From: Gammaproteobacteria bacterium
GTDB lineage: Bacteria > Pseudomonadota > Gammaproteobacteria > Ga0077536
Length of the DNA stretch: 64,000 bases
Direction of reading: 5' to 3'
Assembly: GCA_963662545.2 (NCBI GenBank)
Contig: CAXXLL010000003.1
Coordinates: 2,656,001-2,720,000 of the forward strand
The stretch's first letter is position 1. Every line of letters starts with the position of its first letter. Below the pieces are notes generated by a model. The model saw nothing but the letters and a program-made list of their open reading frames with translations. It was not told the DNA's origin and made no database searches. The translations under genes and the position numbers were made by a program. Positions 36,206 through 55,339 of the stretch are shown piece by piece.

Positions 36206-36280
36206 TTTTATCCTCGGTTGTTTGTTTTAGTTTGGCGTCGAGTGTTTCGACAATTCATAAATTGGAGAAAAGGTGACAGG

Positions 36281-37620
36281 CTGAGGAATCCCCATAAAAC
36301 CCCAACGAAATACAAAGCGATAGATTGATTTGTGGGTTCGTGGAACCTGCATGGCTCGAGTTGATCTCAGTTGTTGCAAGACAATCTGTGAACGACGAGG
36401 TGAGCCATGCAGGTATTGAAATTGTTACATGAAATGAGCAGCGAAGCGCTATACGGTGTGCATTTGGGTCGTCGACTCTCGGTTTGGGCGGCGGTCGGCG
36501 GTTTACTTCGGGGCCGACGTTTGTGGCTGACGCATATCGGTCGGAGCATAGACAGTGGCACGAGCGAGAAACACGCGATTAAGCGCGTCGATCGCTTGCT
36601 GGGTAATCGTCAGCTCGGTGGTGAGCGTTTGCAGTGGTATCAATGGATAGCTCGGTTATTGGTATCGGACTGTGCGCATCCGGTGGTGTTGGTGGATTGG
36701 TCTAATCTGGATCAACGTCAAGAGCTCTATGTATTGCGGGCGGCCTTAGCGGTCGGTGGTCGAGCCATCCCCGTGTATGAAGAAGTCGAACACCATTACG
36801 CGAGTGTCAAAGCGGAGAAACGCTTTCTGAAGCGACTGAAGGCCATTCTGCCTGCGGGCTGTTGTCCGATCTTGGTCAGTGATGCAGGATTTCGGACGCC
36901 CTGGTTGAGTCTTGTGGCCTCAATGGGATGGTATTACGTGGGTCGCATCCGTCATCGTCACCTCGTGCGAGGTATGGATGAGGCGGCATGGCATTCGAAC
37001 AAAGTGCTCTACGGCCAAGCCAATGCTCGTCCGAAGTCACTGGGTCGTTTTTTGATCACGAAAAGTAATCCGCTGGACACCCATTTATTCGTTTACAAAG
37101 GTAAGAAACGCGGGCGTGTCTGCTATACGGCTTACGGCAAACCGGCGCGGGCTCGCAATACCGAGAAACCGTCGGCAGCGGCGCGTGAGCCGTGGTTATT
37201 GGCCAGCAATCTGCCGGACAACCTTCGTAGTGCGCATCGGGTAGTTGCCGTGTATCGTCGCCGCATGCAGATTGAAGAGAGCTTCCGCGACATGAAGTCG
37301 CCCCGTTACGGCTTTGCACTTAGAGAAAACATGGGACGTGATCCCGAGAGAGTGGCGAACTTACTCTTGCTGTGCGCATTGGCCACACTGGCCCAATGGT
37401 TGGTCGGCTTGGTCGGTTACCAAACAGGTTTAGTGAAAGGTTTACAGGCCAATACCGAAAGACGTAAGCCCGTCCTATCCGTGGTATTCGTTGGTGCTCG
37501 CCTCATTGCCAAGCAACTTCAAATCCGGCGCTCAACTTTATTACAGGCGCTCCGGGATCTACAGGCACGCGCCATTGTGCAACTTGAATTTTGCTAGTCG
37601 AATTTGTGGGGATCCCTCAG
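36281..37620 (+). mobile_element. IS4-family (IS10 group) element, 1340 bp, 9-bp DR GGTGACAGG
   Basis: Ends CTGAGGAATCCCC and GGGGATCCCTCAG; DR at 36272-36280 and 37621-37629. Confidence 0.95.
36407..37597 (+). CDS. IS10-like DDE transposase
   Basis: KHAIKRVDRLLGN, LVDWS, DAGF, YRRRMQIEESFRDMK. Confidence 0.93.
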   Translation: MQVLKLLHEMSSEALYGVHLGRRLSVWAAVGGLLRGRRLWLTHIGRSIDSGTSEKHAIKRVDRLLGNRQLGGERLQWYQWIARLLVSDCAHPVVLVDWSNLDQRQELYVLRAALAVGGRAIPVYEEVEHHYASVKAEKRFLKRLKAILPAGCCPILVSDAGFRTPWLSLVASMGWYYVGRIRHRHLVRGMDEAAWHSNKVLYGQANARPKSLGRFLITKSNPLDTHLFVYKGKKRGRVCYTAYGKPARARNTEKPSAAAREPWLLASNLPDNLRSAHRVVAVYRRRMQIEESFRDMKSPRYGFALRENMGRDPERVANLLLLCALATLAQWLVGLVGYQTGLVKGLQANTERRKPVLSVVFVGARLIAKQLQIRRSTLLQALRDLQARAIVQLEFC

Positions 37621-37634
37621 GGTGACAGGTTTAT

Positions 37635-37895
37635 TTGAGTGAACCATATCTCCAAAGTGACCCGGTGGGGCTTGCCGGTGGTATTAATACCTATGCCTAT
37701 GCCAACAGCAACCCCTTACGTTGGATAGATTTATATGGGTTAACTGCGACTTGTCCTCTAATTCCGCCTGGTTTAGGCGATTCGATGTGGACATCCGACC
37801 GCGGTTCACGCTTCTTTCATTGTGGCTTACGAGTTTTTAGGGAGAATCGCAAACCCACACCGTGCGACCCCACCGCAGAATGTGTTTATGACTGA
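37635..37895 (+). pseudogene. RHS core C-terminal fragment (also at 45254-45514)
   Basis: [32 protein letters not shown]. Confidence 0.8.
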
Positions 37896-38236
37896 CCCTG
37901 TCCGGCGCTGAACTCAAGGCCATCCTCGAAGACGTCGCTGATAACCTGTTCAATCCCGACCCGTATTTTCAGCAGGGCGGTGACATGGTGCGCACCGCCG
38001 GGATCGGTTATCGCCTGCGTGCACACGCGCAAGCCGGGGAGCGCATCGAGAATCTGACTAAGCTGCCAGGCCGCGATCCGATTGAAGCGTCGCGACAATA
38101 TGTGCTCACAGCTTGGGCCTCGGTCAACGAAAATGTCGAGGGCCCGGCGGTCTACGACGTCGTCAGCGAGCATATCGAGAACCTCGATGATGACGTCCAT
38201 GTAGCGCCGAACACCGCCGTGCAGTTCGTCGTCTAA
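37895..38236 (+). pseudogene. soxB: Thiosulfohydrolase SoxB C-terminal fragment (also at 45514-45855)
   Basis: ELKAILEDVADNLFNPDPYFQQGGDMVR...WASVNE. Confidence 0.85.
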
Positions 38237-38422
38237 TCAGGTCGCAAAGCCCCTGAATACGGTCAGTAGCGCGCGGATCTCCTGCACGAGATCGGGAGGC
38301 AGGTCATCGGCAGCCATCTCGAACGTCAGGGCCTGCTGGTCCGCGACCTCGATCACAGCTACCTCGCCCGCGAGCCGCACGATGACGATGGCCTGGCCCA
38401 GGTCCTCGGTCGTTCGATTACC

Positions 38423-38469
38423 TCGGCAACTGCTCCTGCGCTGCTCTACCTCCTGCATCCATGCAGTCG
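38423..38469 (-). mobile_element. 47-bp hairpin mini-insertion (filled allele)
   Basis: Absent from the duplicate at 46007/46008; same family as 46646-46692 and 54309-54355. Confidence 0.85.
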
Positions 38470-38826
38470 TACCGCATCGCCTTCGGCCCCCGCCAGGGAC
38501 ACAAGGCCTTCATGCTACAAACGCGCCCCGCGCAAGATGAACACACACCTACCAGCGAGCGCTTGGCCAAGGCCGCGGGCTTCTCCCTACACGCGGGCGT
38601 GGCGGCCGAACCCTGGGAGCGCAACAAACTCCAACGTCTCGCCCGTTACCTCACTCGCCCCGCGATCGCAGAGCAACGCCTCGCGCTAACTGCACAAGGC
38701 CTCGTCAGGTACGAACTCAAAACCCCTTATCGCGACGCCACCACCCACGTGTTCTTCGAGCCCCTGGACCTCATGGCCCGCCTCGCCGCACTCATCCTCA
38801 AACCGCGCGTCAATCTGATCCGATTT

Positions 38827-38898
38827 GATGGGGAACATCCCTGTTCCCCACCCTTCGGGCAACCTTCGGTTGTCCAAATTTATTCCCGATAAATTTGT
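38827..38898. repeat. 72-bp three-hairpin insertion in the ISCR transposase (also 46365-46436, 54028-54099)
   Basis: Interrupts the IRF|HGVFAPN motif and adds an in-frame TAA. Confidence 0.8.
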
Positions 38899-39017
38899 CA
38901 CGGTGTCTTTGCCCCGAATAGCCCGCATCGCGCCGCCGTCACGCCCGCCCGACGCGGCCGCAAGCAATCCGATGCAAAGCCCGACAAAACACCCGCCCAA
39001 CAACGCGCCGCCATATT

Positions 39018-39284
39018 GTGTACCGACGGGCTTTATTCATACTGGTTCTGGTATGGCAGATCGCAGCGGTCGTTGCCGCGGACGAGCGTACGCTGGCCAT
39101 CCTGCTGACGAACGACGACGGCTACGATTCCGCGGGGCTAAGCACATTGCGCGACGCATTGCTCGCGGACGGTCACCGGGTCACGGTGGTCGCGCCGCTG
39201 GCGCAACAAAGCGGCAGCGGCGTGAAAGTCACCCTGGGCACGTATAAGAAAAACAAAGCCCACGTGTCGATTAATCAGTTGTGA
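39018..39284 (+). pseudogene. surE: SurE 5'/3'-nucleotidase N-terminal fragment with signal peptide
   Basis: ILLTNDDG...VVAPLAQQSGSG, then truncated. Confidence 0.8.
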
Positions 39285-39321
39285 AGCGAAGGCCTGGGAC
39301 GAAGCTGGAAGAGAGGTTGTC

Positions 39322-40050
39322 GTGGGTCAGGTGCCGGCAATAGTTCGCACGCCGAAAGCATCGGTACGGGCAGAAAAAGTCGTATTGGTGATGAGCGCCT
39401 GGTCGGTACGCTGGGCCGCAATCCGCAAGGCGGTGGCGGTCGTCAGCGGCGACATCATCATGACGCCCCCCATCCCCAATGAACTCGAACAAATGGGCTG
39501 GACGGATGGCCTCGGCGTCTCCGACGGGCGCGCCCTCGGCATTACGCTCGTGGTCGCCGGTGCCGAGACGACGACCTTCCTGCTCGCGAACCTGCTATAC
39601 AACCTCGCCGTTATGCCCGCGGAGCGGATGGCGCTGTGCCGAGACCCGGCATTGATTCCTGCATTCATAGACGAGAGCTTGCGGCACTCGGGGCCGCCGC
39701 AGCGCCTGTTCCGGATCGCCACCCGGGATGTCGAGGTCGGCGGGTGCCTAATCAAAGCCGGCGAATGGGTGGCCCTGTTCTTCGGCGCCGCAAATCATGA
39801 CGCGGACGTGTTTCCGGAGCCGGCGCGCTTCGAGATGGCCCGCGAGAACGCGAATCGCCACCTGTCGATGGGTCTCGGTATCCACCACTGCCTCGGCTTC
39901 GCCGTCGCGAAGCTTGAGGCGGGCGCGCTTATCGAAGCGGTGCTCGGGCGATTTCCGGAGCTGCGACTCGGCGAAACCCTGCCGGTCCCGCAACGGACGA
40001 GCCTGCTGACGAATAGCTTCGAGGCGCTGACGATCAACTTCGACGGCTGA
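39322..40050 (+). pseudogene. Chimeric ORF: FAD-oxidoreductase-like fragment fused in frame to a cytochrome P450 C-terminal half
   Basis: [15 protein letters not shown]...GVSDGR, then [23 protein letters not shown]. Confidence 0.75.
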
Positions 40051-40067
40051 TCCGGGAGATTGAGCAT

Positions 40068-40475
40068 ATGACGCAAAACAGCAACATCGAGATTACCCAG
40101 CAAATTTTCGCGGCGTTTGGTGCAGCCGATATTCCGGCCATACTCGCGCTGTTGACCGACGATGTCGTGATCGAGTTCTAGGGCCCCTCGACGATTCCCT
40201 ATGCCGGGACCTACCGTGGTAAAGCGGAGGCAACGCGTTTCTTTGACACCGTGCTAGCGTTCGTCGACGTCAACCAGTTCGAACCAAAGGAATTCCTCGC
40301 CGATGGCGACAAGGTCGTCGTGACCGGGCACCTCAACCTCAACGCGAAGTCGAACGGCGGCGAAATCGACTCCGATTTCGTGCATGTCATCACGTTGAGA
40401 GACCGTAAGTGGGCGCGCTTTCGCGATTTCATGGATACCGCCGCTGCCGTAAACGCATTCAGTGGCGAAGCCTGA
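40068..40475 (+). pseudogene. SnoaL/NTF2-like protein with internal TAG (40179-40181)
   Basis: F...DIPAILALLTDDV, PYAGTYRG, GDKVVVTG, RFRDFMDT. Confidence 0.8.
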
Positions 40476-40568
40476 TAATGCTAAAAAGGATTACGACCAC
40501 ATTCGTCCGAAAAATGGCAAATTCGGTGTAAGATTGAGAGACAAAGGCACCCCTAAGGAGCGTTTACC

Positions 40569-41900
40569 ATGGTCGCATCAGTTAAGGCCGCATCCCTCGG
40601 GCTCGCGGTGTACGAACAAACCCGGTCACGTGAGCTATTTGAACGTGCCGAACGGGTCATCCCGGGGCAAAAGTACGGCGGTGCGGTGATCTGTCCGGCT
40701 GGAATGTGCGGTCATTACAGCCTGAACGCGATGGCTCCCGGGTACCCGATCTACTTCTCCGAGGCCCGCGGTGCACGATTCTGGGACGTCGATGGCAATG
40801 AATACGTGGATTACATGTGTGCCTACGGCCCGATGGTTCTCGGCTACAAAAACCCGGTGATCGACGAGGCCGTCCGCAAGCAGAACGAGAAATCCAACAC
40901 CGTCACCTTGGCTGCACCACTGATGGTAGAGCTCGCGGAATACCTGGTGGATCTGGTGCCGATCGCGGACTGGGCGTTCTTCTCCAAGAACGGCGGCGAC
41001 GCGACTGCCCAGTCTGTGATGGTGGCGAGGGCCGCCACGGGCCGCAAGAAGATCGTGACCGTCGCAGACGGCTATCACGGGGTAGCGGCGTGGATGCAGG
41101 GGCCGGGGGCCCCCGGAACCGTTGAGGAAGACTACCGGAACATCGTTACCGTGGACTGGAACGACGTGAAAGGTCTGGAGAACGTGGTGGCGGAGAACCC
41201 GGGAGAAATCGCCGCTTTTATATCGAGTCCGTATCACCACCCCCTGTTCATAGACAATGAGCTGCCCGCACCCGGGTACTGGGCCAATGTCGAGCGGATC
41301 TGCCGCAAGGAGGGCATCGTTATCATCGCCGACGATGTCCGTGCGGGCTTCCGTGCGCACATGGGGGGAAGCTGCGAGTACTTCGGATTCAAGCCGGACC
41401 TGATCTGCTTCGGCAAGGCCCTCGGCAACGGCGAGCCGATTGCCGCGCTGGTCGGGACCGATGCCATGCGCGATGCTGTAGCGAGTGTGTTCTACACCGG
41501 TACCCAGTTCTACAATGCAAGCCCGATGGCTGCCTCGCTCGCCACCCTGCGAGAACTGCAACGGATCGACGGACCGAACGTGATGCTGCAAACCGGTAAA
41601 AAGTTGACGGACGGCATGGTAGAGATCGCGAAGAACCACGGATTCGATCTCAAGGTGAGCGGGATGCCGAGCATGCCCTATCTGCGGCTCACCGACGAGG
41701 ATTCCCCGATCTGGACCGAGGGACTGGAAGCCATGCACACCGGTCTGCACGCGACATGGATCTCAGAATGCACCAGGCGGGGCGCGTTCTTTTCCTCGGT
41801 CCACAACCACTTCGTCTCGACGGCGCACGACCAGGCAGATCTGGAGCGAACCTGGGAGATCGTGGACGAGGCGTTCAAGGTAGTGAAGAACGCGAGGTAG
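40569..41900 (+). CDS. Class III aminotransferase (glutamate-1-semialdehyde aminomutase-like)
   Basis: WDVDGNEYVDY, KNGGDAT, YHG, DDVRAGFR, FGKALGNG. Confidence 0.88.
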   Translation: MVASVKAASLGLAVYEQTRSRELFERAERVIPGQKYGGAVICPAGMCGHYSLNAMAPGYPIYFSEARGARFWDVDGNEYVDYMCAYGPMVLGYKNPVIDEAVRKQNEKSNTVTLAAPLMVELAEYLVDLVPIADWAFFSKNGGDATAQSVMVARAATGRKKIVTVADGYHGVAAWMQGPGAPGTVEEDYRNIVTVDWNDVKGLENVVAENPGEIAAFISSPYHHPLFIDNELPAPGYWANVERICRKEGIVIIADDVRAGFRAHMGGSCEYFGFKPDLICFGKALGNGEPIAALVGTDAMRDAVASVFYTGTQFYNASPMAASLATLRELQRIDGPNVMLQTGKKLTDGMVEIAKNHGFDLKVSGMPSMPYLRLTDEDSPIWTEGLEAMHTGLHATWISECTRRGAFFSSVHNHFVSTAHDQADLERTWEIVDEAFKVVKNAR

Positions 41901-42053
41901 CAGTAAACGGGCACGACGACCGCGAGTCTCGCGGAGCGATCCGCCGAAGAACCGCAGGATTCTGACGGATCCCTGAAAGCTATAAGCCTTAGCGAAAAAA
42001 AATTTCAATCCGGAGAAACGTCCCAGCACTAGTGGCGAGAAACAACCAACAAG

Positions 42054-42077
42054 AAACCCCGCACACGGCGGGGCTTT
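42054..42077. terminator. Putative bidirectional intrinsic terminator
   Basis: AAACCCCGC-ACACG-GCGGGGCTTT. Confidence 0.5.
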
Positions 42078-42517
42078 GTATTCTGAAATAGCCTGGTAGC
42101 GTTAAGCTGCTTTACGCCTTTGGAAACCCAATCCCGCGAGCGCAAATCCCATGAGGGTGAGGGTGGCGGGTTCAGGGGTGGAGAAAAGGTGACAGGCTGA
42201 GGAATCCCCATAAAACCCCAACGAAATACAAAGCGATAGATTGATTTGTGGGTTCGTGGAACCTGCATGGCTCGAGTTGATCTCAGTTGTTGCAAGACAA
42301 TCTGTGAACGACGAGGTGAGCCATGCAGGTATTGAAATTGTTACATGAAATGAGCAGCGAAGCGCTATACGGTGTGCATTTGGGTCGTCGACTCTCGGTT
42401 TGGGCGGCGGTCGGCGGTTTACTTCGGGGCCGACGTTTGTGGCTGACGCATATCGGTCGGAGCATAGACAGTGGCACGAGCGAGAAACACGCGATTAAGC
42501 GCGTCGATCGCTTGCTA

Positions 42518-44214
42518 GTGTGCATCCCTAAACGCGATGCGGTTGAAATAAAAAGGAAAATTTGTCGCTTAAGGGATCGAAACCTCCGGTGGGTCGTGAT
42601 CTAATGGAACTTCAAACCTCTGATTTTCCACACAATCATCGACACCACAGGAGGGGGAATGCGTCAGAAACGCACGGCCCAAGCGAGTATATACGAGCTG
42701 TTTGCTGACCATGACCTGGGGCGAGAGCTGCAGGGCATGTCCGAGTGGCTCGATGCTCACCCCAAGGTCCTCACGCCGGTCATGAACGATCTGTGTCGGC
42801 GGGGTTTGAAGCCCACCGGTCGACGCGGACTGTCGGCGGAGTCGGTGCTGCGCTGCGCGGTGCTCAAGCAGCACCGGCAATTGAGTTACGAGGAGCTGGC
42901 CTTTCACCTGCAGGACTCGGCGAGCTTTCAGGCCTTCGCCCGGTTGCCGGGTAATGAACGTCCGAAGAAGTCTGCCTTACAGCGGGTGGTCTCGGCGATC
43001 CAGGTATCGACGTGGGAGTCTATTCATCGCGCCCTGCTGGCGACGGCGAAAGAGACGCGCATTGAGCCGGCACAGCGTGTACGGATTGATAGCACGGTAA
43101 CGGACAGTGCCATCCACGCGCCGAGCGACAGTCATCTGCTGTGGGATGGCGTGCGTGTTGTGGTTCGTCTGCTCGCACAGGCGCGCGAGTTGCCTGGCGC
43201 GCCGGAGTTGTGCTTCGTGAACCACACTCGATTGGCGAAGAAGCGTGCGCGGGCGCTGTGGTATGCGCGTGGTGCGAAGCAACGCCAACGTCTGTATCGC
43301 GATTTGATTGGGGCGACGCGTTCAACCTTGGAAGCGGTAGCGAGGGTACGTGAGCAGCTGCTGAGCCCGGGCGTCACCGGCGTTGAACTGCCGGACTGGC
43401 TAGCGCAGGTAGCGCACTACGAAACACTTGTTCTGCAGGTGATTTCGCAAACTGAGCGGCGGGTGTTCGGCGGTGAGAAGGTCCCCGCGAGCGAGAAGTG
43501 CGTGAGCTTGTTCGAGCCGCATACCGACATCATCATAAAGGGTGCGCGCGACGTTCAGTACGGACACAAAATCAATCTGGCTTCGGGGCGCAGTGGCCTC
43601 ATCCTCGACGTGGTCATCGAGCGAGGCAATCCGGTCGATAGTCAGCGCTTCATGCCGATGCTCGAACGGCATCGAACACACTACGGGACGATGCCACGAC
43701 AGGTCGCCGCCGATGGCGGCTATGCGAGCCTCGACAATCTCCGGGCGGCGAAAGCAGAAGGCATCGAAGACGTTGCCTTCCACAAGAAGCGCGGGCTCGC
43801 GATCGCCGACATGGTCAAGAGTCAGTGGGTCTATCGACGCTTGCGCAACTTCCGCGCCGGCATCGAGGCCGGTATCTCCTGCCTGAAGCGTGCATACGGA
43901 TTGGCACGTTGCACCTGGAAGAGCCTGCCGCACTTCGAAGCCTACGTGTGGTCTTCTGTGGTCGCCTACAACCTCAGCCTGCTCGCGCGCTATCAACTCG
44001 AATAGCGACGTTCACTCGCACTAACTGACCTCCTCGATATCGTCGAACGGGCGACTTTGGGTTGCAGCGCTCTGCGGCCGGCGAACGTACTCACAATTAC
44101 GCTCGAAGAGCCCTTCGACCCCCACCGAACCGCCGCTACCGCTCCAACAACCTACTTTCAACACCTCGATTTCTCCGTGCCCATCGAAGAAAATGCCTGT
44201 TTATGGACGGACAC
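42518..44214 (+). mobile_element. ISNCY-like element copy 1 (1697 bp), 6-bp DR TTGCTA
   Basis: Ends GTGTGCATCCCTAAAC and GTTTATGGACGGACAC; DR at 42512-42517 and 44215-44220. Confidence 0.9.
42659..44005 (+). CDS. ISNCY-family DDE transposase
   Basis: RIDSTV, SLFEPHTDII, ADGGY, FRAGIEAGIS. Confidence 0.9.
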   Translation: MRQKRTAQASIYELFADHDLGRELQGMSEWLDAHPKVLTPVMNDLCRRGLKPTGRRGLSAESVLRCAVLKQHRQLSYEELAFHLQDSASFQAFARLPGNERPKKSALQRVVSAIQVSTWESIHRALLATAKETRIEPAQRVRIDSTVTDSAIHAPSDSHLLWDGVRVVVRLLAQARELPGAPELCFVNHTRLAKKRARALWYARGAKQRQRLYRDLIGATRSTLEAVARVREQLLSPGVTGVELPDWLAQVAHYETLVLQVISQTERRVFGGEKVPASEKCVSLFEPHTDIIIKGARDVQYGHKINLASGRSGLILDVVIERGNPVDSQRFMPMLERHRTHYGTMPRQVAADGGYASLDNLRAAKAEGIEDVAFHKKRGLAIADMVKSQWVYRRLRNFRAGIEAGISCLKRAYGLARCTWKSLPHFEAYVWSSVVAYNLSLLARYQLE

Positions 44215-46645
44215 TTGCTAGGTAATCGTCAGCTCGGTGGTGAGCGTTTGCAGTGGTATCAATGGATAGCTCGGTTATTGGTATCGGACTGTGCGCATCC
44301 GGTGGTGTTGGTGGATTGGTCTAATCTGGATCAACGTCAAGAGCTCTATGTATTGCGGGCGGCCTTAGCGGTCGGTGGTCGAGCCATCCCCGTGTATGAA
44401 GAAGTCGAACACCATTACGCGAGTGTCAAAGCGGAGAAACGCTTTCTGAAGCGACTGAAGGCCATTCTGCCTGCGGGCTGTTGTCCGATCTTGGTCAGTG
44501 ATGCAGGATTTCGGACGCCCTGGTTGAGTCTTGTGGCCTCAATGGGATGGTATTACGTGGGTCGCATCCGTCATCGTCACCTCGTGCGAGGTATGGATGA
44601 GGCGGCATGGCATTCGAACAAAGTGCTCTACGGCCAAGCCAATGCTCGTCCGAAGTCACTGGGTCGTTTTTTGATCACGAAAAGTAATCCGCTGGACACC
44701 CATTTATTCGTTTACAAAGGTAAGAAACGCGGGCGTGTCTGCTATACGGCTTACGGCAAACCGGCGCGGGCTCGCAATACCGAGAAACCGTCGGCAGCGG
44801 CGCGTGAGCCGTGGTTATTGGCCAGCAATCTGCCGGACAACCTTCGTAGTGCGCATCGGGTAGTTGCCGTGTATCGTCGCCGCATGCAGATTGAAGAGAG
44901 CTTCCGCGACATGAAGTCGCCCCGTTACGGCTTTGCACTTAGAGAAAACATGGGACGTGATCCCGAGAGAGTGGCGAACTTACTCTTGCTGTGCGCATTG
45001 GCCACACTGGCCCAATGGTTGGTCGGCTTGGTCGGTTACCAAACAGGTTTAGTGAAAGGTTTACAGGCCAATACCGAAAGACGTAAACCCGTCCTATCAG
45101 TGGTGTTCGTTGGTGCGCGCCTCATTGCCAAGCAACTTCAAATCCGGCGCTCAACTTTATTACAGGCGCTCCGGGATCTACAGGCACGCGCCATTGTGCA
45201 ACTTGAATTTTGCTAGTCGAATTTGTGGGGATCCCTCAGGGTGACAGGTTTATTTGAGTGAACCATATCTCCAAAGTGACCCGGTGGGGCTTGCCGGTGG
45301 TATTAATACCTATGCCTACGCCAACAGCAACCCCTTACGTTGGATAGATTTATATGGGTTAACTGCGACTTGTCCTCTAATTCCGCCTGGTTTAGGCGAT
45401 TCGATGTGGACATCCGACCGCGGTTCACGCTTCTTTCATTGTGGCTTACGAGTTTTTAGGGAGAATCGCAAACCCACACCGTGCGACCCCACCGCAGAAT
45501 GTGTTTATGACTGACCCTGTCCGGCGCTGAACTCAAGGCCATCCTCGAAGACGTCGCTGATAACCTGTTCAATCCCGACCCGTATTTTCAGCAGGGCGGT
45601 GACATGGTGCGCACCGCCGGGATCGGTTATCGCCTGCGTGCACACGCGCAAGCCGGGGAGCGCATCGAGAATCTGACTAAGCTGCCAGGCCGCGATCCGA
45701 TTGAAGCGTCGCGACAATATGTGCTCACAGGTTGGGCCTCGGTCAACGAAAATGTCGAGGGCCCGGCAGTTTACGACGTCGTCAGCGAGCATATCGAGAA
45801 CCTCGATGATGACGTCCATGTAGCGCCGAACACCGCCGTGCAGTTCGTCGTCTAATCAGGTCGCAAAGCCCCTGAATACGGTCGGTAGCGCGCGGATCTC
45901 CTGCACGAGATCGGGAGGCAGGTCATCGGCGGCCATCTCGAACGTCAGGGCCCCTCGAGCCGCACGATGACGATGGCCTGGCCCAGGTCCTCGGTAGTTC
46001 GATTACCTACCGCATCGCCTTCGGCCCCCGCCAGGGACACAAGGCCTTCATGCTACAAACGCGCCCCGCGCAAGATGAACACACACCTACCAGCGAGCGC
46101 TTGGCCAAGGCCGCGGGCTTCTCCCTACACGCGGGCGTGGCGGCCGAACCCTGGGAGCGCAACAAACTCCAACGTCTCGCCCGTTACCTCACTCGCCCCG
46201 CGATCGCAGAGCAACGCCTCGCGCTAACTGCACAAGGCCTCGTCAGGTACGAACTCAAAACCCCTTATCGCGACGGCACCACCCACGTGTTCTTCGAGCC
46301 CCTGGACCTCATGGCCCGCCTCGCCGCACTCATCCTCAAACCGCGCGTCAATCTGATCCGATTTGATGGGGAACATCCCTGTTCCCCACCCTTCGGGCAA
46401 CCTTCGGTTGTCCAAATTTATTCCCGATAAATTTGTCACGGTGTCTTTGCCCCGAATAGCCCGCATCGCGCCGCCGTCACGCCCGCCCGACGCGGCCGCA
46501 AGCAATCCGATGCAAAGCCCGACAAAACACCCGCCCAACAACGCGCCACCATGAGCCTTAAGCACAAAGACTCAAACGTGTGTTCAATATCGATATCGAG
46601 ACCTGTGAGGCCTGCGGGGGGCATGTCAAGATCATCGCCTGCATC

Positions 46646-46692
46646 CGACTGCAGGGATGCAGGAGGTAGAGCAATGCAGGAGCAATTGCCGA
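46646..46692 (+). mobile_element. 47-bp hairpin mini-insertion
   Basis: CGACTGCAGGGATGCAGGAGGTAGAGCAATGCAGGAGCAATTGCCGA between codons ATC and GAA. Confidence 0.85.
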
Positions 46693-47027
46693 GAAGACCC
46701 CGACCTTATCCAACGCATCCTCGACCATCTCGACCGTCATACCGAACCGACCCGAGCTGTCAACGCGCATCCCGCCCGCGCGCCGCCGCAACTGCCCCTG
46801 CTCGGACTCAACGATTGAGCCCAACAGCCACACGCAGCACGGATGCCAGGCCTCGCCAGCGACGGTCTCCGCGACACTCGACCGCAAGGCTAATCCGTCG
46901 ACTTCACGCCCCGCTCAGCCGTTCAGTGACACGCGATAACCCGATTTCACACGCCTGACCCCTACGTCTGCCCCACTTCCGCCTTCGTCAACCGCGCTCC
47001 AACCCGCGCGTCAGCGCATGAATGCGG

Positions 47028-47049
47028 GCGTTGTACTTCCTATTCTCCC
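47028..47049 (+). other. Putative oriIS (also 54691-54712)
   Basis: Resembles ISCR oriIS GCGTTTGAACTTCCTATACxC; similarity between copies B and C ends exactly here. Confidence 0.75.
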
Positions 47050-47200
47050 GCAGATGTACTTTTTCGAAGATCGTGCGTTGGTGTTCTGGAGTCTTGTCCT
47101 GCCCGGCTCGGATCGTGAGGTCGACGGCGTCGACGTGATGACCTTTACGGATGACGAACGTATCGCAGTAAAGGATGCCTACTGCAAGGCCTTTAGCTAG
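47050..47200 (+). pseudogene. SnoaL-like C-terminal fragment
   Basis: VDGVDVMTF...I..KDAYCK. Confidence 0.55.
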
Positions 47201-48896
47201 TGTGCATCCCTAAACGCGATGCGGTTGAAATAAAAAGGAAAATTTGTCGCTTAAGGGATCGAAACCTCCGGTGGGTCGTGATCTAATGGAACTTCAAACC
47301 TCTGATTTTCCACACAATCATCGACACCACAGGAGGGGGAATGCGTCAGAAACGCACGGCCCAAGCGAGTATATACGAGCTGTTTGCTGACCATGACCTG
47401 GGGCGAGAGCTGCAGGGCATGTCCGAGTGGCTCGATGCTCACCCCAAGGTCCTCACGCCGGTCATGAACGATCTGTGTCGGCGGGGTTTGAAGCCCACCG
47501 GTCGACGCGGACTGTCGGCGGAGTCGGTGCTGCGCTGCGCGGTGCTCAAGCAGCACCGGCAATTGAGTTACGAGGAGCTGGCCTTTCACCTGCAGGACTC
47601 GGCGAGCTTTCAGGCCTTCGCCCGGTTGCCGGGTAATGAACGTCCGAAGAAGTCTGCCTTACAGCGGGTGGTCTCGGCGATCCAGGTATCGACGTGGGAG
47701 TCTATTCATCGCGCCCTGCTGGCGACGGCGAAAGAGACGCGCATTGAGCCGGCACAGCGTGTACGGATTGATAGCACGGTAACGGACAGTGCCATCCACG
47801 CGCCGAGCGACAGTCATCTGCTGTGGGATGGCGTGCGTGTTGTGGTTCGTCTGCTCGCACAGGCGCGCGAGTTGCCTGGCGCGCCGGAGTTGTGCTTCGT
47901 GAACCACACTCGATTGGCGAAGAAGCGTGCGCGGGCGCTGTGGTATGCGCGTGGTGCGAAGCAACGCCAACGTCTGTATCGCGATTTGATTGGGGCGACG
48001 CGTTCAACCTTGGAAGCGGTAGCGAGGGTACGTGAGCAGCTGCTGAGCCCGGGCGTCACCGGCGTTGAACTGCCGGACTGGCTAGCGCAGGTAGCGCACT
48101 ACGAAACACTTGTTCTGCAGGTGATTTCGCAAACTGAGCGGCGGGTGTTCGGCGGTGAGAAGGTCCCCGCGAGCGAGAAGTGCGTGAGCTTGTTCGAGCC
48201 GCATACCGACATCATCATAAAGGGTGCGCGCGACGTTCAGTACGGACACAAAATCAATCTGGCTTCGGGGCGCAGTGGCCTCATCCTCGACGTGGTCATC
48301 GAGCGAGGCAATCCGGTCGATAGTCAGCGCTTCATGCCGATGCTCGAACGGCATCGAACACACTACGGGACGATGCCACGACAGGTCGCCGCCGATGGCG
48401 GCTATGCGAGCCTCGACAATCTCCGGGCGGCGAAAGCAGAAGGCATCGAAGACGTTGCCTTCCACAAGAAGCGCGGGCTCGCGATCGCCGACATGGTCAA
48501 GAGTCAGTGGGTCTATCGACGCTTGCGCAACTTCCGCGCCGGCATCGAGGCCGGTATCTCCTGCCTGAAGCGTGCATACGGATTGGCACGTTGCACCTGG
48601 AAGAGCCTGCCGCACTTCGAAGCCTACGTGTGGTCTTCTGTGGTCGCCTACAACCTCAGCCTGCTCGCGCGCTATCAACTCGAATAGCGACGTTCACTCG
48701 CACTAACTGACCTCCTCGATATCGTCGAACGGGCGACTTTGGGTTGCAGCGCTCTGCGGCCGGCGAACGTACTCACAATTACGCTCGAAGAGCCCTTCGA
48801 CCCCCACCGAACCGCCGCTACCGCTCCAACAACCTACTTTCAACACCTCGATTTCTCCGTGCCCATCGAAGAAAATGCCTGTTTATGGACGGACAC
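47200..48896 (+). mobile_element. ISNCY-like element copy 2
   Basis: Matches 42518-44214; flanks TAGCTA and TTGCTA (imperfect DR). Confidence 0.9.
47341..48687 (+). CDS. ISNCY-family transposase
   Basis: Same protein as 42659-44005. Confidence 0.9.
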   Translation: MRQKRTAQASIYELFADHDLGRELQGMSEWLDAHPKVLTPVMNDLCRRGLKPTGRRGLSAESVLRCAVLKQHRQLSYEELAFHLQDSASFQAFARLPGNERPKKSALQRVVSAIQVSTWESIHRALLATAKETRIEPAQRVRIDSTVTDSAIHAPSDSHLLWDGVRVVVRLLAQARELPGAPELCFVNHTRLAKKRARALWYARGAKQRQRLYRDLIGATRSTLEAVARVREQLLSPGVTGVELPDWLAQVAHYETLVLQVISQTERRVFGGEKVPASEKCVSLFEPHTDIIIKGARDVQYGHKINLASGRSGLILDVVIERGNPVDSQRFMPMLERHRTHYGTMPRQVAADGGYASLDNLRAAKAEGIEDVAFHKKRGLAIADMVKSQWVYRRLRNFRAGIEAGISCLKRAYGLARCTWKSLPHFEAYVWSSVVAYNLSLLARYQLE

Positions 48897-48910
48897 TTGC
48901 TAGGCGCCTG

Positions 48911-48985: not shown

Positions 48986-50137
48986 TCACTCAAACAAACC
49001 TTCAAACCAAGGCAGAATCAGTTCCTGATTGATCGAATACGTATACGCATGCCCCCACTCTGGAAGCTCTTTATACGTCACCTCCGCGAATCCATTTTCC
49101 ACGAGCGTGGCGTTCGCCATACGCGCGCCCCGTACGGGAAAGATAAAGTCCTGCCCGCCATGAATAATGAGAAACGGCAATGCTTTGGCTTTTTGCAGGT
49201 CCAGCCACGGCGCTAAAACGGCGGCGATGGGGGCAACTGCTGCAAAAAGATCCGGACGGCTCGTAGCTAACGCATACGAAAACGTCCCACCGTCCGATAA
49301 GCCAGAGACAAGAATTCGATCCGAATCAATGGCGTATTGTTCACCTACAGTCGTCAGCATCGCGGTAATGGACAAAACATCCGCGTCGGGATTGTCGACA
49401 GCCCAGGTGGGGCCGAGCGATTTCGGTGACAGAATAAAATATCCGTTGCTTTTTGCCGCTCGTAGCCACGTGAGCAGATACTCGTCATTCGCCCCGCTAC
49501 CGCCGTGCAGGGCGATAATCAATGGCCAATGTCGCTCGGGCACATAGTTCTCTGGCACATAGAGCGAATAGGCTCCATGTTCACTTGACCGTTGGTGATG
49601 CAGAATGCCGACCTCATGTTCGCTGGCGGCGACGCTCTCTTCCAGCGCGGGAAGATCGGCGACCACATCCGGAAGAACCCAATACTGCTGGAGGGTCGGC
49701 GTGTAATGGCGGATGTCGTACAAAAGAAATCGCGCTCGGGCGAACGTGTCGCGACTTTGTATAAAGACACCGATAAAATTGGAATCTTTTCGTACAAAAA
49801 TGCCATACGTCGTATAGAGCAGGCCGACGGCGTCAAACCAGGTCTCATGGAAGGCTTTACGTTCCGGTGGTGGCGTCAGTTTTTCAAATTCCGACCGAAT
49901 ATGGGCAAACTGATCACCGACTGCCTGGCTGAGTTCGGCTTGGAGTTGCGTAAACTTCGCGGGATGAAGCTGTTCCTGCAGGGTTTCAAATGTGCGCAGA
50001 AAGTAAAGCACCTGTTCTTCTTGGCGCGCAATGACTGAGTAGTAGTCTCCGTCGGCCAAAGCTGGTAAAGAAAAGAGCGTAATAGGAGCGGGTGTAAGAA
50101 CGTAAAAAAATAGGGCTGTCAGCCGAGTGCGAAGCAT
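48986..50137 (-). CDS. Exported alpha/beta hydrolase (esterase/PHB depolymerase-like)
   Basis: Signal peptide, PLIIALHG, GLSDGG nucleophile elbow, HGGQD, GH. Confidence 0.8.
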   Translation of the reverse strand: MLRTRLTALFFYVLTPAPITLFSLPALADGDYYSVIARQEEQVLYFLRTFETLQEQLHPAKFTQLQAELSQAVGDQFAHIRSEFEKLTPPPERKAFHETWFDAVGLLYTTYGIFVRKDSNFIGVFIQSRDTFARARFLLYDIRHYTPTLQQYWVLPDVVADLPALEESVAASEHEVGILHHQRSSEHGAYSLYVPENYVPERHWPLIIALHGGSGANDEYLLTWLRAAKSNGYFILSPKSLGPTWAVDNPDADVLSITAMLTTVGEQYAIDSDRILVSGLSDGGTFSYALATSRPDLFAAVAPIAAVLAPWLDLQKAKALPFLIIHGGQDFIFPVRGARMANATLVENGFAEVTYKELPEWGHAYTYSINQELILPWFEGLFE

Positions 50138-50243
50138 GCCGGGAGATTGTATCAATCTAGCCAAGGGACGGGCTAATAACTTTCGGACACCATTGCCAAA
50201 CACCGCTGTCCTTTGAGACATTCCGCGACCATGTCGAGATATA

Positions 50244-51599
50244 GTGCCAAGTAAATCTATACCTTTTCGTCCTCGTGCCTGGCGCTCGCATACGGCGCCC
50301 GCCATCTGTCTCGGCTTTGTCGGCACGATATCGGCGATGAGCGCGTCCGCCTTCGAGCCCGTCACATACGGCCCGCTCGAAGCAGCATTCGGTATCACCG
50401 CCATCGCGAGCGCGCAGCAGGGTAGCGGGGTTAATTTCGGTTTCGGCGCTTTCGACCACCCGGGCGATGCCGCGCGTACCGTGGTGTCGGCCTCGATCGA
50501 ACCGCGCCTCGGATTGACGTGGGCGCTCGATCGGTCGACGTTATACGGGGCCGCCTCGGTCGTCGCGGCCGGCACCTTTTTCGACGGTGAGATCGCCGGC
50601 CAATTCGGCCGCTCGGGCGACGACGCATTCGACAACGACGAAGCGCATCTCGGCTGGCGTAATGACCTGTTCGACGTCTCGGTCGGGGCGCAGGAATTCA
50701 TCGTCGGCGACGGTTTGTTGATCGGCGATGGTAATTTCGACACCGGCGCCGACGACGGTCAGTACTGGCTGCTGCCGTTCACCGCGTGGCGTAACTCGGT
50801 GATCGCGAAACTCACCCACGAGCACCTGCGCGGGCAGCTGTTCTGGCTACGCAGCGATCGGGATTTCGGCGACGCCTATGTCGCCGGAATCAACCTCGAA
50901 AGCGAATTCGGAGCGGAATACGGCACGCTCGGGTTCATGTATGCCGAAGTGTTGCAGGGCAATCAATTCAATTACGACGGCATCGAGGTATGGAACGTGC
51001 GGGGCGCCGAAATCCGGCATCCCTTGATCCCGAACCTGACGCTGTTCGGTGAATACGTGGCCGAGCGCGGGCGTGACGACGACGGCGCGGGCGCCGACAA
51101 CGAGGCGAGCGGCTGGTATATCGAGGCGCGATACGCCATGCCCGGACTGCCATGGTCGCCCGCGGTTCACTACCGCTACATGCATCTGTCCGGCGACGAA
51201 CTCGACACGCCGGAGAATGAGGAATTCCGCGGGCTCTTCTTCACCACCGGCACGCGCGGCTGGGATACCTGGTATCAAGGTGAGATCGCGAGCCAGTACC
51301 ACCTGTTCAACCAGAACCAAGTGACGCAGATGGTCAAGGTGACCGCCTCACCGGCGCAGCGCTGGACCGTGTCGCTCTACTACTACCGCTTCGACTTGGA
51401 AGAGCCGCAGTTCCTCGGCACGCCGGTTTCGAGCACCGACTGGGCCGACGAATATAACCTGATGCTTGAATACGCTTTGGGCGAACGGTTGTACGTCTTT
51501 ACTGCGCTGTCCTGGTCACCGCCCGGCAACGCGGTGAAGCAACTCTTCGGCGACGACGACTTCACGGTGTTGGAGACGTTTTTCGTGTACACGTTTTGA
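50244..51599 (+). CDS. Outer-membrane beta-barrel (alginate-export/porin-like)
   Basis: Signal peptide, SVGAQEFIVGDGLLI, SGD, amphipathic strands, terminal YTF. Confidence 0.7.
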   Translation: MPSKSIPFRPRAWRSHTAPAICLGFVGTISAMSASAFEPVTYGPLEAAFGITAIASAQQGSGVNFGFGAFDHPGDAARTVVSASIEPRLGLTWALDRSTLYGAASVVAAGTFFDGEIAGQFGRSGDDAFDNDEAHLGWRNDLFDVSVGAQEFIVGDGLLIGDGNFDTGADDGQYWLLPFTAWRNSVIAKLTHEHLRGQLFWLRSDRDFGDAYVAGINLESEFGAEYGTLGFMYAEVLQGNQFNYDGIEVWNVRGAEIRHPLIPNLTLFGEYVAERGRDDDGAGADNEASGWYIEARYAMPGLPWSPAVHYRYMHLSGDELDTPENEEFRGLFFTTGTRGWDTWYQGEIASQYHLFNQNQVTQMVKVTASPAQRWTVSLYYYRFDLEEPQFLGTPVSSTDWADEYNLMLEYALGERLYVFTALSWSPPGNAVKQLFGDDDFTVLETFFVYTF

Positions 51600-51632
51600 A
51601 CACGCAACAGGACGACGCCAGCGTTATAGCCC

Positions 51633-52488: not shown

Positions 52489-52608
52489 TTCGATTCGTGC
52501 GCGCACTGCCGGAACCAAGACGGTTACGCTAACGCTGGATGTCAGAAACGCGATTCACGGCCTAGAAGTGTGACCGTTTGGCTAGTCGCTGCGTTCTAAT
52601 ACTAGAAC

Positions 52609-52953
52609 TTACTGTTTTGCCTTATACGCCCGCAGGGCCAGGTTAAACTGGTTGGCTACCGCTTCCATGTTGTCAACCATCTGATTGTGGCTTTCGATCA
52701 TTGCGGCTTTCATCGCCAGTGCTTCTTCGTCATCGCCGAGCGTGCCTCCGGCTTCGGTCAAGCATTCCAGGTAAGCATTCGCCGCATCCATGTAGGTCTT
52801 GACCGCTTTCTGCGCGCCGATCAGATCCTCTTCGGTCGCTTTTTCTCCGTCGGGAATACCGGGTTCGGCAGGGGTGCTACACCTCTTGGCCGCGAGCGCC
52901 GGCTGCGCCGCGAGCAGGGCGATGGTCAACAAGGTCGTCGTAAGTAATTTCAT
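52609..52953 (-). CDS. Small exported helical protein with a Cys pair
   Basis: Signal peptide; C..P..P.IPDG..AT...YLECL; RBS GGAGG. Confidence 0.75.
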   Translation of the reverse strand: MKLLTTTLLTIALLAAQPALAAKRCSTPAEPGIPDGEKATEEDLIGAQKAVKTYMDAANAYLECLTEAGGTLGDDEEALAMKAAMIESHNQMVDNMEAVANQFNLALRAYKAKQ

Positions 52954-53289
52954 TGTTCGCCTCCAAGCGATGAATCCTAACTCAAGGTAGCCGGCCGGTC
53001 ATCTTGCAGCAGTTCACGCAGGACTGGTTCTAATACTTCGATGCATTCATCTGCGAACGCGGAAAAGAGTACAAGGGGTCACTTCAGTGCGTCTCCTTTT
53101 CCGCGCCGTTTCCGCACTTGAAATCACTAAGAAACAGTTTCCGGAGATGTGTGTGGATCTGATTTTTTCGAGAATTTAGAGATTACAACACCGTGAAATA
53201 ACTCACGCCAAAGGCCAGCAGCAATTGCACGAAAAAGATGAGTCGCAGAAAATATTTTGCCGTCCATTTTGGCTGTACACGCTGTGGCA

Positions 53290-53440
53290 GGCGCTTGTAA
53301 GGCGCCAACAGCAAACAGCCATATCGACCACGTCCCCAGCGTCTGGGTAAGCATATTGCTCAAGGCAGTAATGGTATCGGCGCCCTGTGGTGTTTCACCC
53401 ATTGCATACAGCACACCGGCGTCGGTGATTGAGTCGGTGT
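53290..53440 (-). pseudogene. Nramp-like membrane transporter fragment
   Basis: AGVLY..GETPQG...LSNMLTQTLGTWSIWLFAVGA. Confidence 0.45.
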
Positions 53441-53699
53441 TGGCCACGCGTTGTTCTTGTATTTAGACGACCGAAACTTGGCAACTTAAGTGTCGAATTG
53501 AAGTTGACTTGACAATAGCGGCTTTAGCCCTTGGTCCAGGCCGCGGCGCGCGGGCGCCGTCTCGGCCAGCCTGCGACGATCCGGCCGCGGCCTTGAGGGA
53601 GCTCCGGCCGGTGATCCGCCGCCGAGATCCGGGACCCCAGCGCATGGAAGACTTCGAACGAGCGGCGGATGAGCGCGGGGGACACGCCGTCCAGCACGA

Positions 53700-54712
53700 A
53701 CACAAGGCCTTCATGCTACAAACGCGCCCCGCGCAAGATGAACACACGCCTACCAGCGAGCGCTTGGCCAAGGCCGCGGGCTTCTCCCTACACGCGGGCG
53801 TGGCGGCCGAACCCTGGGAGCGCAACAAACTCCAACGTCTCGCCCGTTACCTCACTCGCCCCGCGATCGCAGAGCAACGCCTCGCGCTAACTGCACAAGG
53901 CCTCGTCAGGTACGAACTCAAAACCCCTTATCGCGACGGCACCACCCACGTGTTCTTCGAGCCCCTGGACCTCATGGCCCGCCTCGCCGCACTCATCCCC
54001 AAACCGCGCGTCAATCTGATCCGATTTGATGGGGAACATCCCTGTTCCCCACCCTTCGGGCAACCTTCGGTTGTCCAAATTTATTCCCGATAAATTTGTC
54101 ACGGTGTCTTTGCCCCGAATAGCCCGCATCGCGCCGCCGTCACGCCCGCCCGACGCGGCCGCAAGCAATCCGATGCAAAGCCCGACAAAACACCCGCCCA
54201 ACAACGCGCCACCATGAGCCTTAAGCACAAAGACTCAAACGTGTGTTCAATATCGATATCGAGACCTGTGAGGCCTGCGGGGGGCATGTCAAGATCATCG
54301 CCTGCATCCGACTGCAGGGATGCAGGAGGTAGAGCAATGCAGGAGCAATTGCCGAGAAGACCCCGACCTTATCCAACGCATCCTCGACCATCTCGACCGT
54401 CATACCGAACCGACCCGAGCTGTCAACGCGCATCCCGCCCGCGCGCCGCCGCAACTGCCCCTGCTCGGACTCAACGATTGAGCCCAACAGCCACACGCAG
54501 CACGGATGCCAGGCCTCGCCAGCGACGGTCTCCGCGACACTCGACCGCAAGGCTAATCCGTCGACTTCACGCCCCGCTCAGCCGTTCAGTGACACGCGAT
54601 AACCCGATTTCACACGCCTGACCCCTACGTCTGCCCCACTTCCGCCTTCGTCAACCGCGCTCCAACCCGCGCGTCAGCGCATGAATGCGGGCGTTATACT
54701 TCCTATTCTCCC
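53700..54712 (+). mobile_element. IS91/ISCR-like remnant C with oriIS
   Basis: Near-identical to 46037-47049; carries both mini-insertions. Confidence 0.88.
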
Positions 54713-55339
54713 AGGGCCGAAGACTTGATCATTGACGATGGCAGGATCTCGGTCGCCGGGACGCCGTCGCGGTCCATGACGATGCAAGAGGTCGCCTTCG
54801 CAGCGTATTGGGACGGTAACGTGCGTGACGACGAGGCTGGCGGAAGCCACCAACCACTGTTGTCGTCTACCCGTTTTTACGATCCGCCCGCCACGTATGC
54901 GAACGGCTGCGTTGTGGTGCTCGCCGAGGTCGACACCGACACCGGCGTCGTCAAGTTGGATCGCGTCGTCGTGGTGGAGGACTGCGGGACGGTCATCAAT
55001 CCCATGATCGTTGAAGGACAGGTGCACGGTGCGATCGCCCAGGGGATCGGCGGCGCGATGCTCGAGTATCTAATCTACAGCGAGGATGGTCAGCCGCTGA
55101 CGACGACTTATATGGACTACCTGGTTCCCACCGCCACGGTTGTGCCCAACATCGAGGTGCTCCATCTCGAATCGCCGTCGCCATTCAGTATCGGTGGCAT
55201 TTAGGGGATGGGCGAAGGCGGACAGATTGCCGCGCCGGCAGCAGTGGCCAACGCGGTCGCCGACGCGCTCGCGCCGTTCGGCGCCCGCGTAACGCGTCTG
55301 CCACTGACACCCGACAATGTCCTGCGGATGATCGGCTGA
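54713..55339 (+). pseudogene. Xanthine dehydrogenase/CoxL-family molybdoprotein C-terminal fragment with premature TAG (55202)
   Basis: DCGTVINP..VEGQVHG...GI*GMGE...ANAVADAL. Confidence 0.85.

Follow-up and report, generated by a model that had tools for sequence, protein, structure and literature searches.

How three remnants of an insertion sequence with common region (ISCR-type, IS91-like) element, none of which encodes a complete transposase, came to lie within 19 kb of one another amid pieces of unrelated genes is the question raised by this stretch of gammaproteobacterial DNA (64,000 nucleotides of contig CAXXLL010000003.1, hereafter the window). A preliminary description of the sequence answered it with Helitron-like shuffling: ISCR copies lacking terIS would have been moved in trans, and successive rounds of read-through would have stacked pieces of upstream genes. 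We give about an even chance to a different answer, in which the three copies would stem from one already inactivated ISCR element, B and/or C of the copies defined below would have been mobilized in trans, and the mosaic of gene pieces would be wreckage left by insertion sequences (IS) and deletions rather than ISCR cargo.

Self-alignment of the window reveals three related stretches in direct orientation, A (36263-39014), B (42179-47049), and C (53700-54712). A and B have in common, in the same order, an IS4-family element, the tip of an RHS gene, the C terminus of SoxB, and a transposase remnant. B is 99.4% identical to A, with 11 single-nucleotide polymorphisms (SNPs) over 1739 bp and 2 over 545 bp, and the two also differ in that B has lost 34 nucleotides (nt), A has an insertion of 47 nt, and an ISNCY-family IS of 1.7 kb interrupts the IS4 copy of B. 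C corresponds to B 46037-47049, with 99.7% identity over 1013 bp.

By profile matching and alignment, the transposase remnants are assigned to ISCR clade Ia (IS91-like, of the HUH/Y2 rolling-circle type). All three match Pfam Y2_Tnp (E 1e-18 to 3e-19) and the NCBIfam model ISCR_clade_Ia, NF052416 (509 positions; A 280-398, E 2e-37; B 266-398, E 6e-42; C 290-398, E 3e-36), and further pieces match up to position 474; as partial matches, these score below the full-length cutoff of 925 bits. The IS91 model NF033538 reaches E values of only 1e-4 to 6e-4. Searches with a piece of 118 residues gave matches in at least 5000 plasmid records, an annotated ISCR1-family transposase among them (66.9% identity), and the piece shares 64 to 78% identity with proteins of about 500 amino acids that combine Zn_Tnp_IS91 with Y2_Tnp (2735 of 3743 candidates pass E 0.001). 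The Y2_Tnp and NF052416 matches bear out the earlier identification of three 5'-truncated IS91/ISCR transposase remnants.

In tblastn comparisons with full-length relatives, the N-terminal 210 to 290 residues are missing from all three remnants, and in none of A, B, and C is there a complete translatable transposase gene, with zinc finger, HUH motif, catalytic tyrosine region, and C-terminal part. The 5' boundary (terIS) is gone with the missing 5' parts of these copies; no search was made for a terIS displaced to another part of the window. Because the alignment with full-length relatives carries the transposase of A leftward to position ~38306 and probably to ~38240, what had been described as a short minus-strand gene tail (~38240-38423) is in fact plus-strand transposase, corresponding to approximately residues 234 to 272 of a 501-residue relative. 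A is broken on its right side as well, at 39010-39014, with up to 4 nt of microhomology, and has lost its oriIS.

B and C both stop at ...GTT(G/A)TACTTCCTATTCTCCC (positions 47049 and 54712, respectively), and their sequences diverge from the next base onward. Judged by its homologs, this terminus is a bona fide ISCR 3' (oriIS-type) end. Its 12-mer core occurs twice in the window with at most one mismatch, compared with 0.12 occurrences expected. A fuzzy search with the last 20 nt in 79 related loci, collected by a protein-profile search of genome contigs, returned 20 matches in 19 loci; 18 of the 20 have the core (A/G/T)(C/T)TTC(C/T)TAT(A/C)C, which corresponds to the ISCR2-type 3' end TTTATACTTCCTATACCC, and several lie a few hundred bases 3' of the transposase C terminus. 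When 14 loci were aligned to the ISCR2-type locus L002, 12 lost similarity at 5967/5968, which is this motif, and left ends were scattered between 1632 and 4640, several coinciding with the end of a contig. The shared terminus and these ISCR2-type homologs thus uphold the observation in the preliminary description that B and C end at the same oriIS-like motif. Its companion claim, that each copy then runs into a different gene, holds for C, where the C-terminal part of a gene of the xanthine dehydrogenase (XDH) type begins at 54713 (MoCoBD_2 profile, 143-283 of 283, E 8e-42; carbon monoxide dehydrogenase [CODH] large subunit, NF040766, about 572-743 of 785), while the support for a SnoaL-like gene following B is weak (SnoaL_2 profile, 64-100, with E no better than 0.086, and no NCBIfam match).

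The lesions carried by the three copies are central to their history. A 72-nt insertion that contains a stop codon interrupts the codon before HGVFAPNS in all of them (38826-38897, 46364-46435, and 54027-54098). B and C have in addition a TGG-to-CTTAA change at the tryptophan codon of ..AMSW|AQRLKRVF.. (46557-46561 and 54220-54224), which causes a +2 frameshift, together with an insert of 47 nt between IIACI and EDPDLI (46646-46692 and 54309-54355); A is truncated 5' of both of these sites. An inverted 47-nt element (38423-38469) is private to A, and the 34-nt deletion and the ISNCY insertion are private to B. Because A and B each have private lesions, none of A, B, and C is the direct parent of another. 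The simplest reading, at least for the pair B and C, is that the copies arose after the gene had been inactivated, because B and C have the same lesions but stop exactly at the terminus, each in a flank of its own. Copying by way of the terminus would imply that the transposase was supplied in trans.

A different kind of boundary marks the left side of the A/B unit. The IS4-family element there (copy 1 transposase, NF033591, E 2e-93) has terminal inverted repeats at 36262-36298 and 37603-37655, and homology to plasmid RHS genes starts exactly at 37656, which fixes its right boundary independently. The left boundary of the unit shared by A and B coincides exactly with the outer tip of the IS4 inverted repeat, and the DNA to the left differs between the copies. 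Only the 4 expected IS4 ends are found in the window, besides 3 matches with two mismatches (2.35 expected by chance), and no target duplication surrounds either IS4 copy, although one is expected for the IS4 family. ISNCY copy 1 (transposase, NF033593, E 5e-142) is flanked by 4-bp CTAG direct repeats at 42515-18 and 44218-21, and the corresponding empty site in copy A reads CTGG; copy 2 (47197-48903) cuts the open reading frame (ORF) tail 3' of B, again with CTAG on both sides.

The gene pieces themselves are largely as they had been described. Upstream of A and B, the IS element (now placed in the IS4 family), the RHS tip (TIGR03696 Rhs_assc_core, 45-76 of 76, E 6e-9, above the cutoff; 83% DNA identity to plasmid RHS genes), and the SoxB C terminus (about 105 residues; TIGR04486, 447-551 of 556, E 1.6e-36; Pfam 5_nucleotid_C, E 7e-7) all stand, the supposed minus-strand tail being the part of that string that does not. 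Among the fragments to the right of A, profiles identify the N terminus of SurE, which extends to ~39245 (2-48 of 252 in NCBIfam, with a Pfam SurE match too), an internal piece of an FAD-dependent oxidoreductase at ~39330-39535 (TIGR03329, 212-281 of 460, E 2e-14), and a cytochrome P450 C terminus at ~39535-40050 (several P450 models covering ~214-396, and Pfam p450 too); an Nramp fragment that had also been listed is a weak match (E 0.0025, below the curated cutoff). The junctions of the surE, FAD, and P450 pieces touch no ISCR end, and the pieces adjoin A, the copy without oriIS.

Together, these observations lead us to propose that the three remnants would descend from one ISCR clade Ia element that had already been inactivated, and that the 19-kb stretch would have been hit repeatedly by IS4-family and ISNCY-family IS and by deletions. 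At least one of B and C would be a transposed defective copy that retained its oriIS and used a transposase made elsewhere, with C being either an early-terminated (one-ended) product or the result of a later 5' deletion. Insertions and deletions, together with recombination among the repeats, would be the main source of the mosaic of gene pieces, including the A/B breakpoint at the IS4 terminus; we favor wreckage over cargo because the left edge of A and B is an IS4 terminus, the ISNCY insertions are simple ones with CTAG repeats, and the surE/FAD/P450 junctions lack an ISCR end. That a duplication breakpoint fell by chance at the terminus twice, in B and in C, is unlikely, and trans-copying of a dead ISCR is plausible for both. 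The suggestion of the preliminary description that non-autonomous copies were moved in trans thus survives in part, the lesions proving that the copies are dead and movement in trans being the simplest account of B and C.

Several observations weigh against this proposal. The 64-kb window contains no intact Y2 or clade Ia transposase, and the closest relatives inspected (P0004-P0007 and P0012, 76 to 78% identity) look frameshifted or truncated. The 26-nt terminus has no exact match in the genome-contig collection, which holds neither the source genome nor close kin. The bases 3' of the terminus, GCAG in B and AGGG in C, are not the IS91-type target tetranucleotides GTTC or CTTG. The left flank of C is not the missing half of the Mo-hydroxylase (molybdenum hydroxylase) gene on its right, and extra rearrangements are therefore needed under any model. 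Gene conversion between two independent old insertions could likewise have spread the lesions, and we found no simple mechanism by which a duplication could begin precisely at an IS4 end and keep its right flank. Finally, the available part of PMC9376610 states that experimental proof of rolling-circle movement is lacking for CR elements. As to the tetranucleotides, the rule for sites next to the ori end of IS91 (GTTC/CTTG type) is given in the accessible sections of PMC13181058, and the related ISCR2-type loci likewise lack an IS91-type target tetranucleotide. As to the relatives, the nearest intact-looking one is P0015 (501 amino acids, 72% identity), and the whole subclade of closest relatives may be largely non-autonomous; relatives of 76 to 94% identity were compared as proteins only, and those from the genome-contig profile search are at most 68% identical.

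We considered several ways in which IS4 could have generated the A/B duplication. IS4-family elements are regarded as cut-and-paste transposons. Movement of the A unit by IS4 was rejected, as there is no 9-bp repeat around 36263-39014 and no IS4-like end near 39014 or 47049, and it is also ruled out by the presence of only the 4 expected IS4 ends. For a composite IS4 transposon spanning 36263-45274 the flanks do not match, and unequal crossing-over between the IS4 copies should have yielded three copies of IS4 and repeated 39015-42178 after B, neither of which is seen.

The read-through capture model of the preliminary description has attractions of its own: the right end is constant while left extents vary (1013 bp in C, and at least back to 42179 in the B unit), and the fragment string is found 5' of the remnant, the side expected for read-through cargo. 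Moreover, the left junction of C overlaps GAAC (in C) or GGAC (in B), which are among the tetranucleotides (GAAC, GGAC, CAAG, CGAC, and GCAC) that bound one-ended products of IS801 on their left, and the same report, in its available sections, describes experimentally trapped IS801 right-end fragments of 229, 360, and 679 nt together with captured pieces, 290 to 1431 nt long, of an adjacent oxidoreductase gene (PMC3189936). However, the boundary of the A/B unit is the IS4 tip TGGAG itself and not a GAAC-like site, no such tetranucleotide is present at the soxB/transposase and RHS/soxB junctions (by reading of the sequence, with no formal test), and the copy that the surE, FAD, and P450 pieces adjoin on its right, A, has no oriIS. 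One of three inspected left junctions fits, compared with a chance of ~10% per junction by rough, uncomputed estimate, and there are only three copies, all in one window. A duplication boundary explained by another IS, an outcome that the preliminary description had named in advance as speaking against its model, is what we find at the outer end of the IS4 inverted repeat. As the A/B unit begins at an IS4 end and most fragment junctions touch no ISCR end, shuffling of gene pieces in the manner of Helitrons is unsupported, IS-driven rearrangement explains the mosaic as well as such shuffling would, and we consider the capture model unlikely.

At the other extreme, A, B, and C may be purely passive remnants, spread by segmental duplication, unequal recombination, deletion, and gene conversion with no ISCR transposition after inactivation. 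The direct orientation of all three copies in a stretch of 19 kb that also contains two pairs of other IS copies would suit such a history, as would the A/B boundary at an IS4 end and the private indels in A and in B, neither of which is the parent of the other; in addition, the IS801 study, in the portion available, concludes in retrospect that most genomic IS801 fragments are attributable to reorganizations and not to one-ended transposition (PMC3189936). A passive origin nevertheless requires a breakpoint exactly at the conserved terminus in both B and C, and no duplicated flank is seen on either side of C, so that we regard it as rather unlikely. That the fragment junctions are collapsed or misjoined repeats of the assembly is a concern in this repeat-rich region, and it appears very improbable: the IS4/RHS/SoxB/transposase junctions occur twice, the ISNCY insertions have proper 4-bp repeats with an empty site in copy A, and a 94%-identical ORF with the same 47-nt and 72-nt insertions is found in another public record (P0124). 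The argument already made against a chimera, that the junctions are present in both copies despite SNPs and indels, is borne out by the 13 SNPs and three indels that separate them. Between these possibilities, we continue to favor trans-mobilization of B and/or C within a locus otherwise shaped by IS and deletions, the features of which are collected in Table 1.

Table 1. Coordinates of the features in and around copies A, B, and C, and occurrences of the two small elements (window positions unless a locus is named)
Feature	Position	Strand	Remarks
IS4-family IS, copy 1	36263..37655	+	Length 1393 bp, with intact transposase at 36407-37597; the A/B repeat starts at its left tip
RHS core tip plus short C-terminal tail (3' rhs fragment)	37656..37895	+	Copy B, 45275-45514
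SoxB (thiosulfohydrolase) C-terminal fragment	37892..38236	+	Stop codon 38234-38236; copy B, 45511-45855
ISCR remnant A	38240..39014	+	Residues ~212-234 to ~430; both ends truncated
SurE N terminus, FAD-dependent oxidoreductase internal piece, and cytochrome P450 C-terminal part, abutting	39015..40050	+	Pfam and NCBIfam profiles
SnoaL-like gene with in-frame stop 40179-40181, then class III aminotransferase 40569-41900	40017..41900	+	Profile matches
PEP-CTERM sorting tail	42105..42178	-	PF07589, E 8e-7; TIGR02595 and PEP-CTERM family models
IS4-family element, copy 2	42179..45274	+	Interrupted by ISNCY-family IS 42515-44221
ISCR remnant B	45859..47049	+	Residue ~212 to stop 46816-46818, then 231-nt 3' noncoding end with oriIS-type terminus
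B right flank, 49-codon ORF tail, possible SnoaL/NTF2-like C terminus	47050..47200	+	SnoaL_2, E 0.086
ISNCY-family IS, copy 2	47197..48903	+	100% identical to copy 1; CTAG flanked
ISCR remnant C	53700..54712	+	Residues ~282-290 to stop, plus oriIS-type terminus
Mo-hydroxylase (XDH/aerobic CODH family) large subunit, C-terminal third	54713..55204	+	Starts at first base after the terminus of remnant C
Possible 27-codon IS91/ISCR N-terminal zinc-finger relic	56639..56719	+	Weak tblastn match
47/48-nt element	38423-38469	-	Two-hairpin; no target duplication
47/48-nt element	46646-46692	+	Two-hairpin; no target duplication
47/48-nt element	54309-54355	+	Two-hairpin; no target duplication
47/48-nt element, other loci	L055 4197-4244; L034 3294-3341; L066 1601-1648; L080 2501-2548; L081 2501-2535		
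72-nt element, other loci	L064 5351-5422; L078 473-546; L039 9399-9470, 9650-9730		
72-nt element, other loci	L043 3801-3872	-	

Beyond the repeats, the neighborhood contains genes in various states of preservation. The SnoaL-like gene 3' of A (40017-40475) is nearly full length and not a fragment: its SnoaL_2 matches (2-27, E 0.007, and 29-101, E 4e-11) lie in one frame and are split by the in-frame stop, which makes it either a pseudogene or a case of read-through. The class III aminotransferase that follows is apparently intact (3-427 of 429), and of the gene truncated by IS4 copy 2 at that element's left end, only the PEP-CTERM tail remains. Two overlapping ORFs, 48986-50743 (minus strand) and 50244-51599 (plus strand), share ~500 bp and resemble an esterase or polyhydroxyalkanoate depolymerase and, weakly, Alginate_exp, respectively; at least one of them is probably not a real or intact gene. 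Downstream of C by 1.9 kb, between two minus-strand genes, the possible zinc-finger relic matches the SCK..GF.P..G.RRMAE stretch at 13 of 27 residues (weak tblastn E values of 0.006 to 0.04 with three full-length relatives). Elsewhere in the window, two IS21-family copies (1508-4087 and 19307-21887), each consisting of an IstA-like rve/Mu-transposase ORF and IstB, are 99.96% identical with one indel, the long ORF being 397 amino acids in the first copy and 504 in the second. Outside 36-55 kb, the scanned ORFs resemble ordinary genes, with matches over all or nearly all of the respective profiles.

The two small insertions found in the remnants recur elsewhere. Copies 90 to 96% identical to the 47-nt stretch of B are present in ISCR-like elements of three other genomes (L055, L034, and L066), at different sites, and in total this 47/48-nt element occupies five different ISCR-like element sites in four genomes. 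Seven Pseudoalteromonas records have it in intergenic DNA, and 35 nt of it lie in frame within pglX of two plasmids. Four of five independent sites are in Y2-like coding sequence, which itself makes up 16.8% of the 630 kb examined. As single-stranded DNA the element folds into two hairpins, with z scores of -3.3 and -3.8 for 2 of the 5 copies folded and of -0.9 to -1.6 for the other 3, and one compensatory stem change is seen. The site occupied in copy A is empty in B; P0124 (94% identical, with 8 sequences in its cluster) and P0126 have ..QS|YRIA in their sequence or at its start, which indicates the same site as in copy A, and P0126 has a second copy after ARLAAL. A sequencing adapter was dismissed as the source, given that copies differ by 4 to 10% and show the compensatory change. 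A text match of the literature to a 19-nt stretch of the 47-mer found nothing, this being the only search made for prior descriptions of the small elements.

The 72-nt insertion presents a similar picture. L064, a locus from another genome, contains an ISCR-like gene whose frame is open but for a 72-nt insertion; the insertion interrupts the NL.R(Y/F)|HGVFAPN codon at the same nucleotide as in the window, so that the site is identical in diverged ISCR-like genes. The window and L064 inserts are identical at 45 of 72 positions and form three hairpins, in which 8 of 24 stem pairs are changed on both sides; 47 of 48 cells pair, a value matched by none of 500 shuffles and by no slid register, although a comparison of two sequences can be no more than suggestive. 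A covariance model further detected the element at the same codon of an inverted remnant in L043, at another codon of a third gene in L078, and outside Y2/ISCR-like genes in L039 and L058; altogether, 4 of 7 independent matches (E up to 0.013) fall in Y2 coding sequence. The protein P0006 carries an insertion at the same site and a second one inside its HUH motif. The plasmid collection contained no match to the two 72-mers. No Rfam family was found in 36000-57000 at E up to 0.1, and the 47-nt and 72-nt elements are therefore not known RNA families.

The TGG-to-CTTAA change is also present in L064 (~5552-5556), at 1 of 69 sites in related loci, and is implied in the protein P0005. A programmed frameshift at CTTAA was rejected, as a TAA lies directly upstream in the -1 frame and there is no slippery heptamer. 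In a tree of the 118-residue region, the window copies group with P0005, P0006, P0007, P0012, and P0015 (support 97/84), and L064 lies elsewhere, with L041 and L060, which are without both lesions; the tree is built on 118 columns only, and many of its forks are open. The same lesions in separate lineages may possibly reflect site-specific insertion and excision, or an unrecognized function. We offer as a tentative, improbable idea that ISCR-like transposons of environmental Gammaproteobacteria are colonized at fixed codons by the 47- and 72-nt elements, neither of which would make a target duplication, that these elements are miniatures of HUH/IS91-type ori ends, or a conserved control module, that enter single-stranded ISCR intermediates, and that their dead carriers, such as A, B, and C, spread from oriIS in trans.

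Among known systems, the remnants most directly recall ISCR1 and ISCR2, in their transposase (66.9% identity over 118 amino acids and the NF052416 match), in a 3' terminus of the type TTTATACTTCCTATACCC, and, for ISCR2-type loci, in a constant right end with a variable upstream extent. They differ in that no resistance genes adjoin A, B, or C and in that all three copies are dead and 5' truncated; in addition, gene content and the relatives suggest that the host is an environmental gammaproteobacterium. Environmental ISCR elements are already known, as the available text on ISCR8 reports multiple copies on environmental plasmids (PMC13393415). With IS91 and IS801, the locus shares variable-length ori fragments and would share defective copies able to use a transposase in trans and the capture of upstream gene pieces (PMC3189936 and PMC13181058, each as available in part): in the sections at hand, a mini-IS91 consisting of an 89-bp terIS and an 82-bp oriIS is moved by TnpA in trans, and failed termination, or one-ended transposition, of IS91 co-mobilizes adjacent DNA (PMC13181058). 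B and C, though not A, have the ori-end right boundary of the one-ended IS801/IS91 products. However, that behavior was shown experimentally for those elements and is inferred here, the rule of an ori-adjacent GAAC or CAAG, as read on this strand, is not obeyed at this locus, and the transposase of A, B, and C belongs to the ISCR clade and not to IS91 proper.

The likeness to Helitrons is one of idea only, namely a rolling-circle HUH transposase, non-autonomous copies, and the capture of gene fragments. The Helitron Rep is related to IS91-type transposases. In contrast to Helitrons, the A/B/C locus is bacterial and lacks a Rep/helicase protein and Helitron termini; a Pfam scan of the ORFs of 36-56 kb found no helicase domain, and Y2_Tnp/ISCR matches were the only ones of the rolling-circle kind.

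The locus is a decayed ISCR-type element of a known kind, and both one-ended transposition and ori-end miniatures are already documented, in the available parts of the respective reports, for IS91 (PMC13181058) and IS801 (PMC3189936). It mainly illustrates how gene fragments build up in IS-rich regions, and it carries the caution that a mosaic beside a rolling-circle element need not be captured cargo. Trans-mobilization, if true, would provide a natural case, away from resistance plasmids, of dead ISCR copies spreading from oriIS, and it would be of interest because direct movement of ISCR elements has never been shown, as stated in the available part of PMC9376610. The small hairpin elements and the CTTAA change are a more unusual lead than the mosaic. 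If the small elements are site-specific parasites or regulators of rolling-circle transposons, they would represent a new layer of mobile-element interaction.

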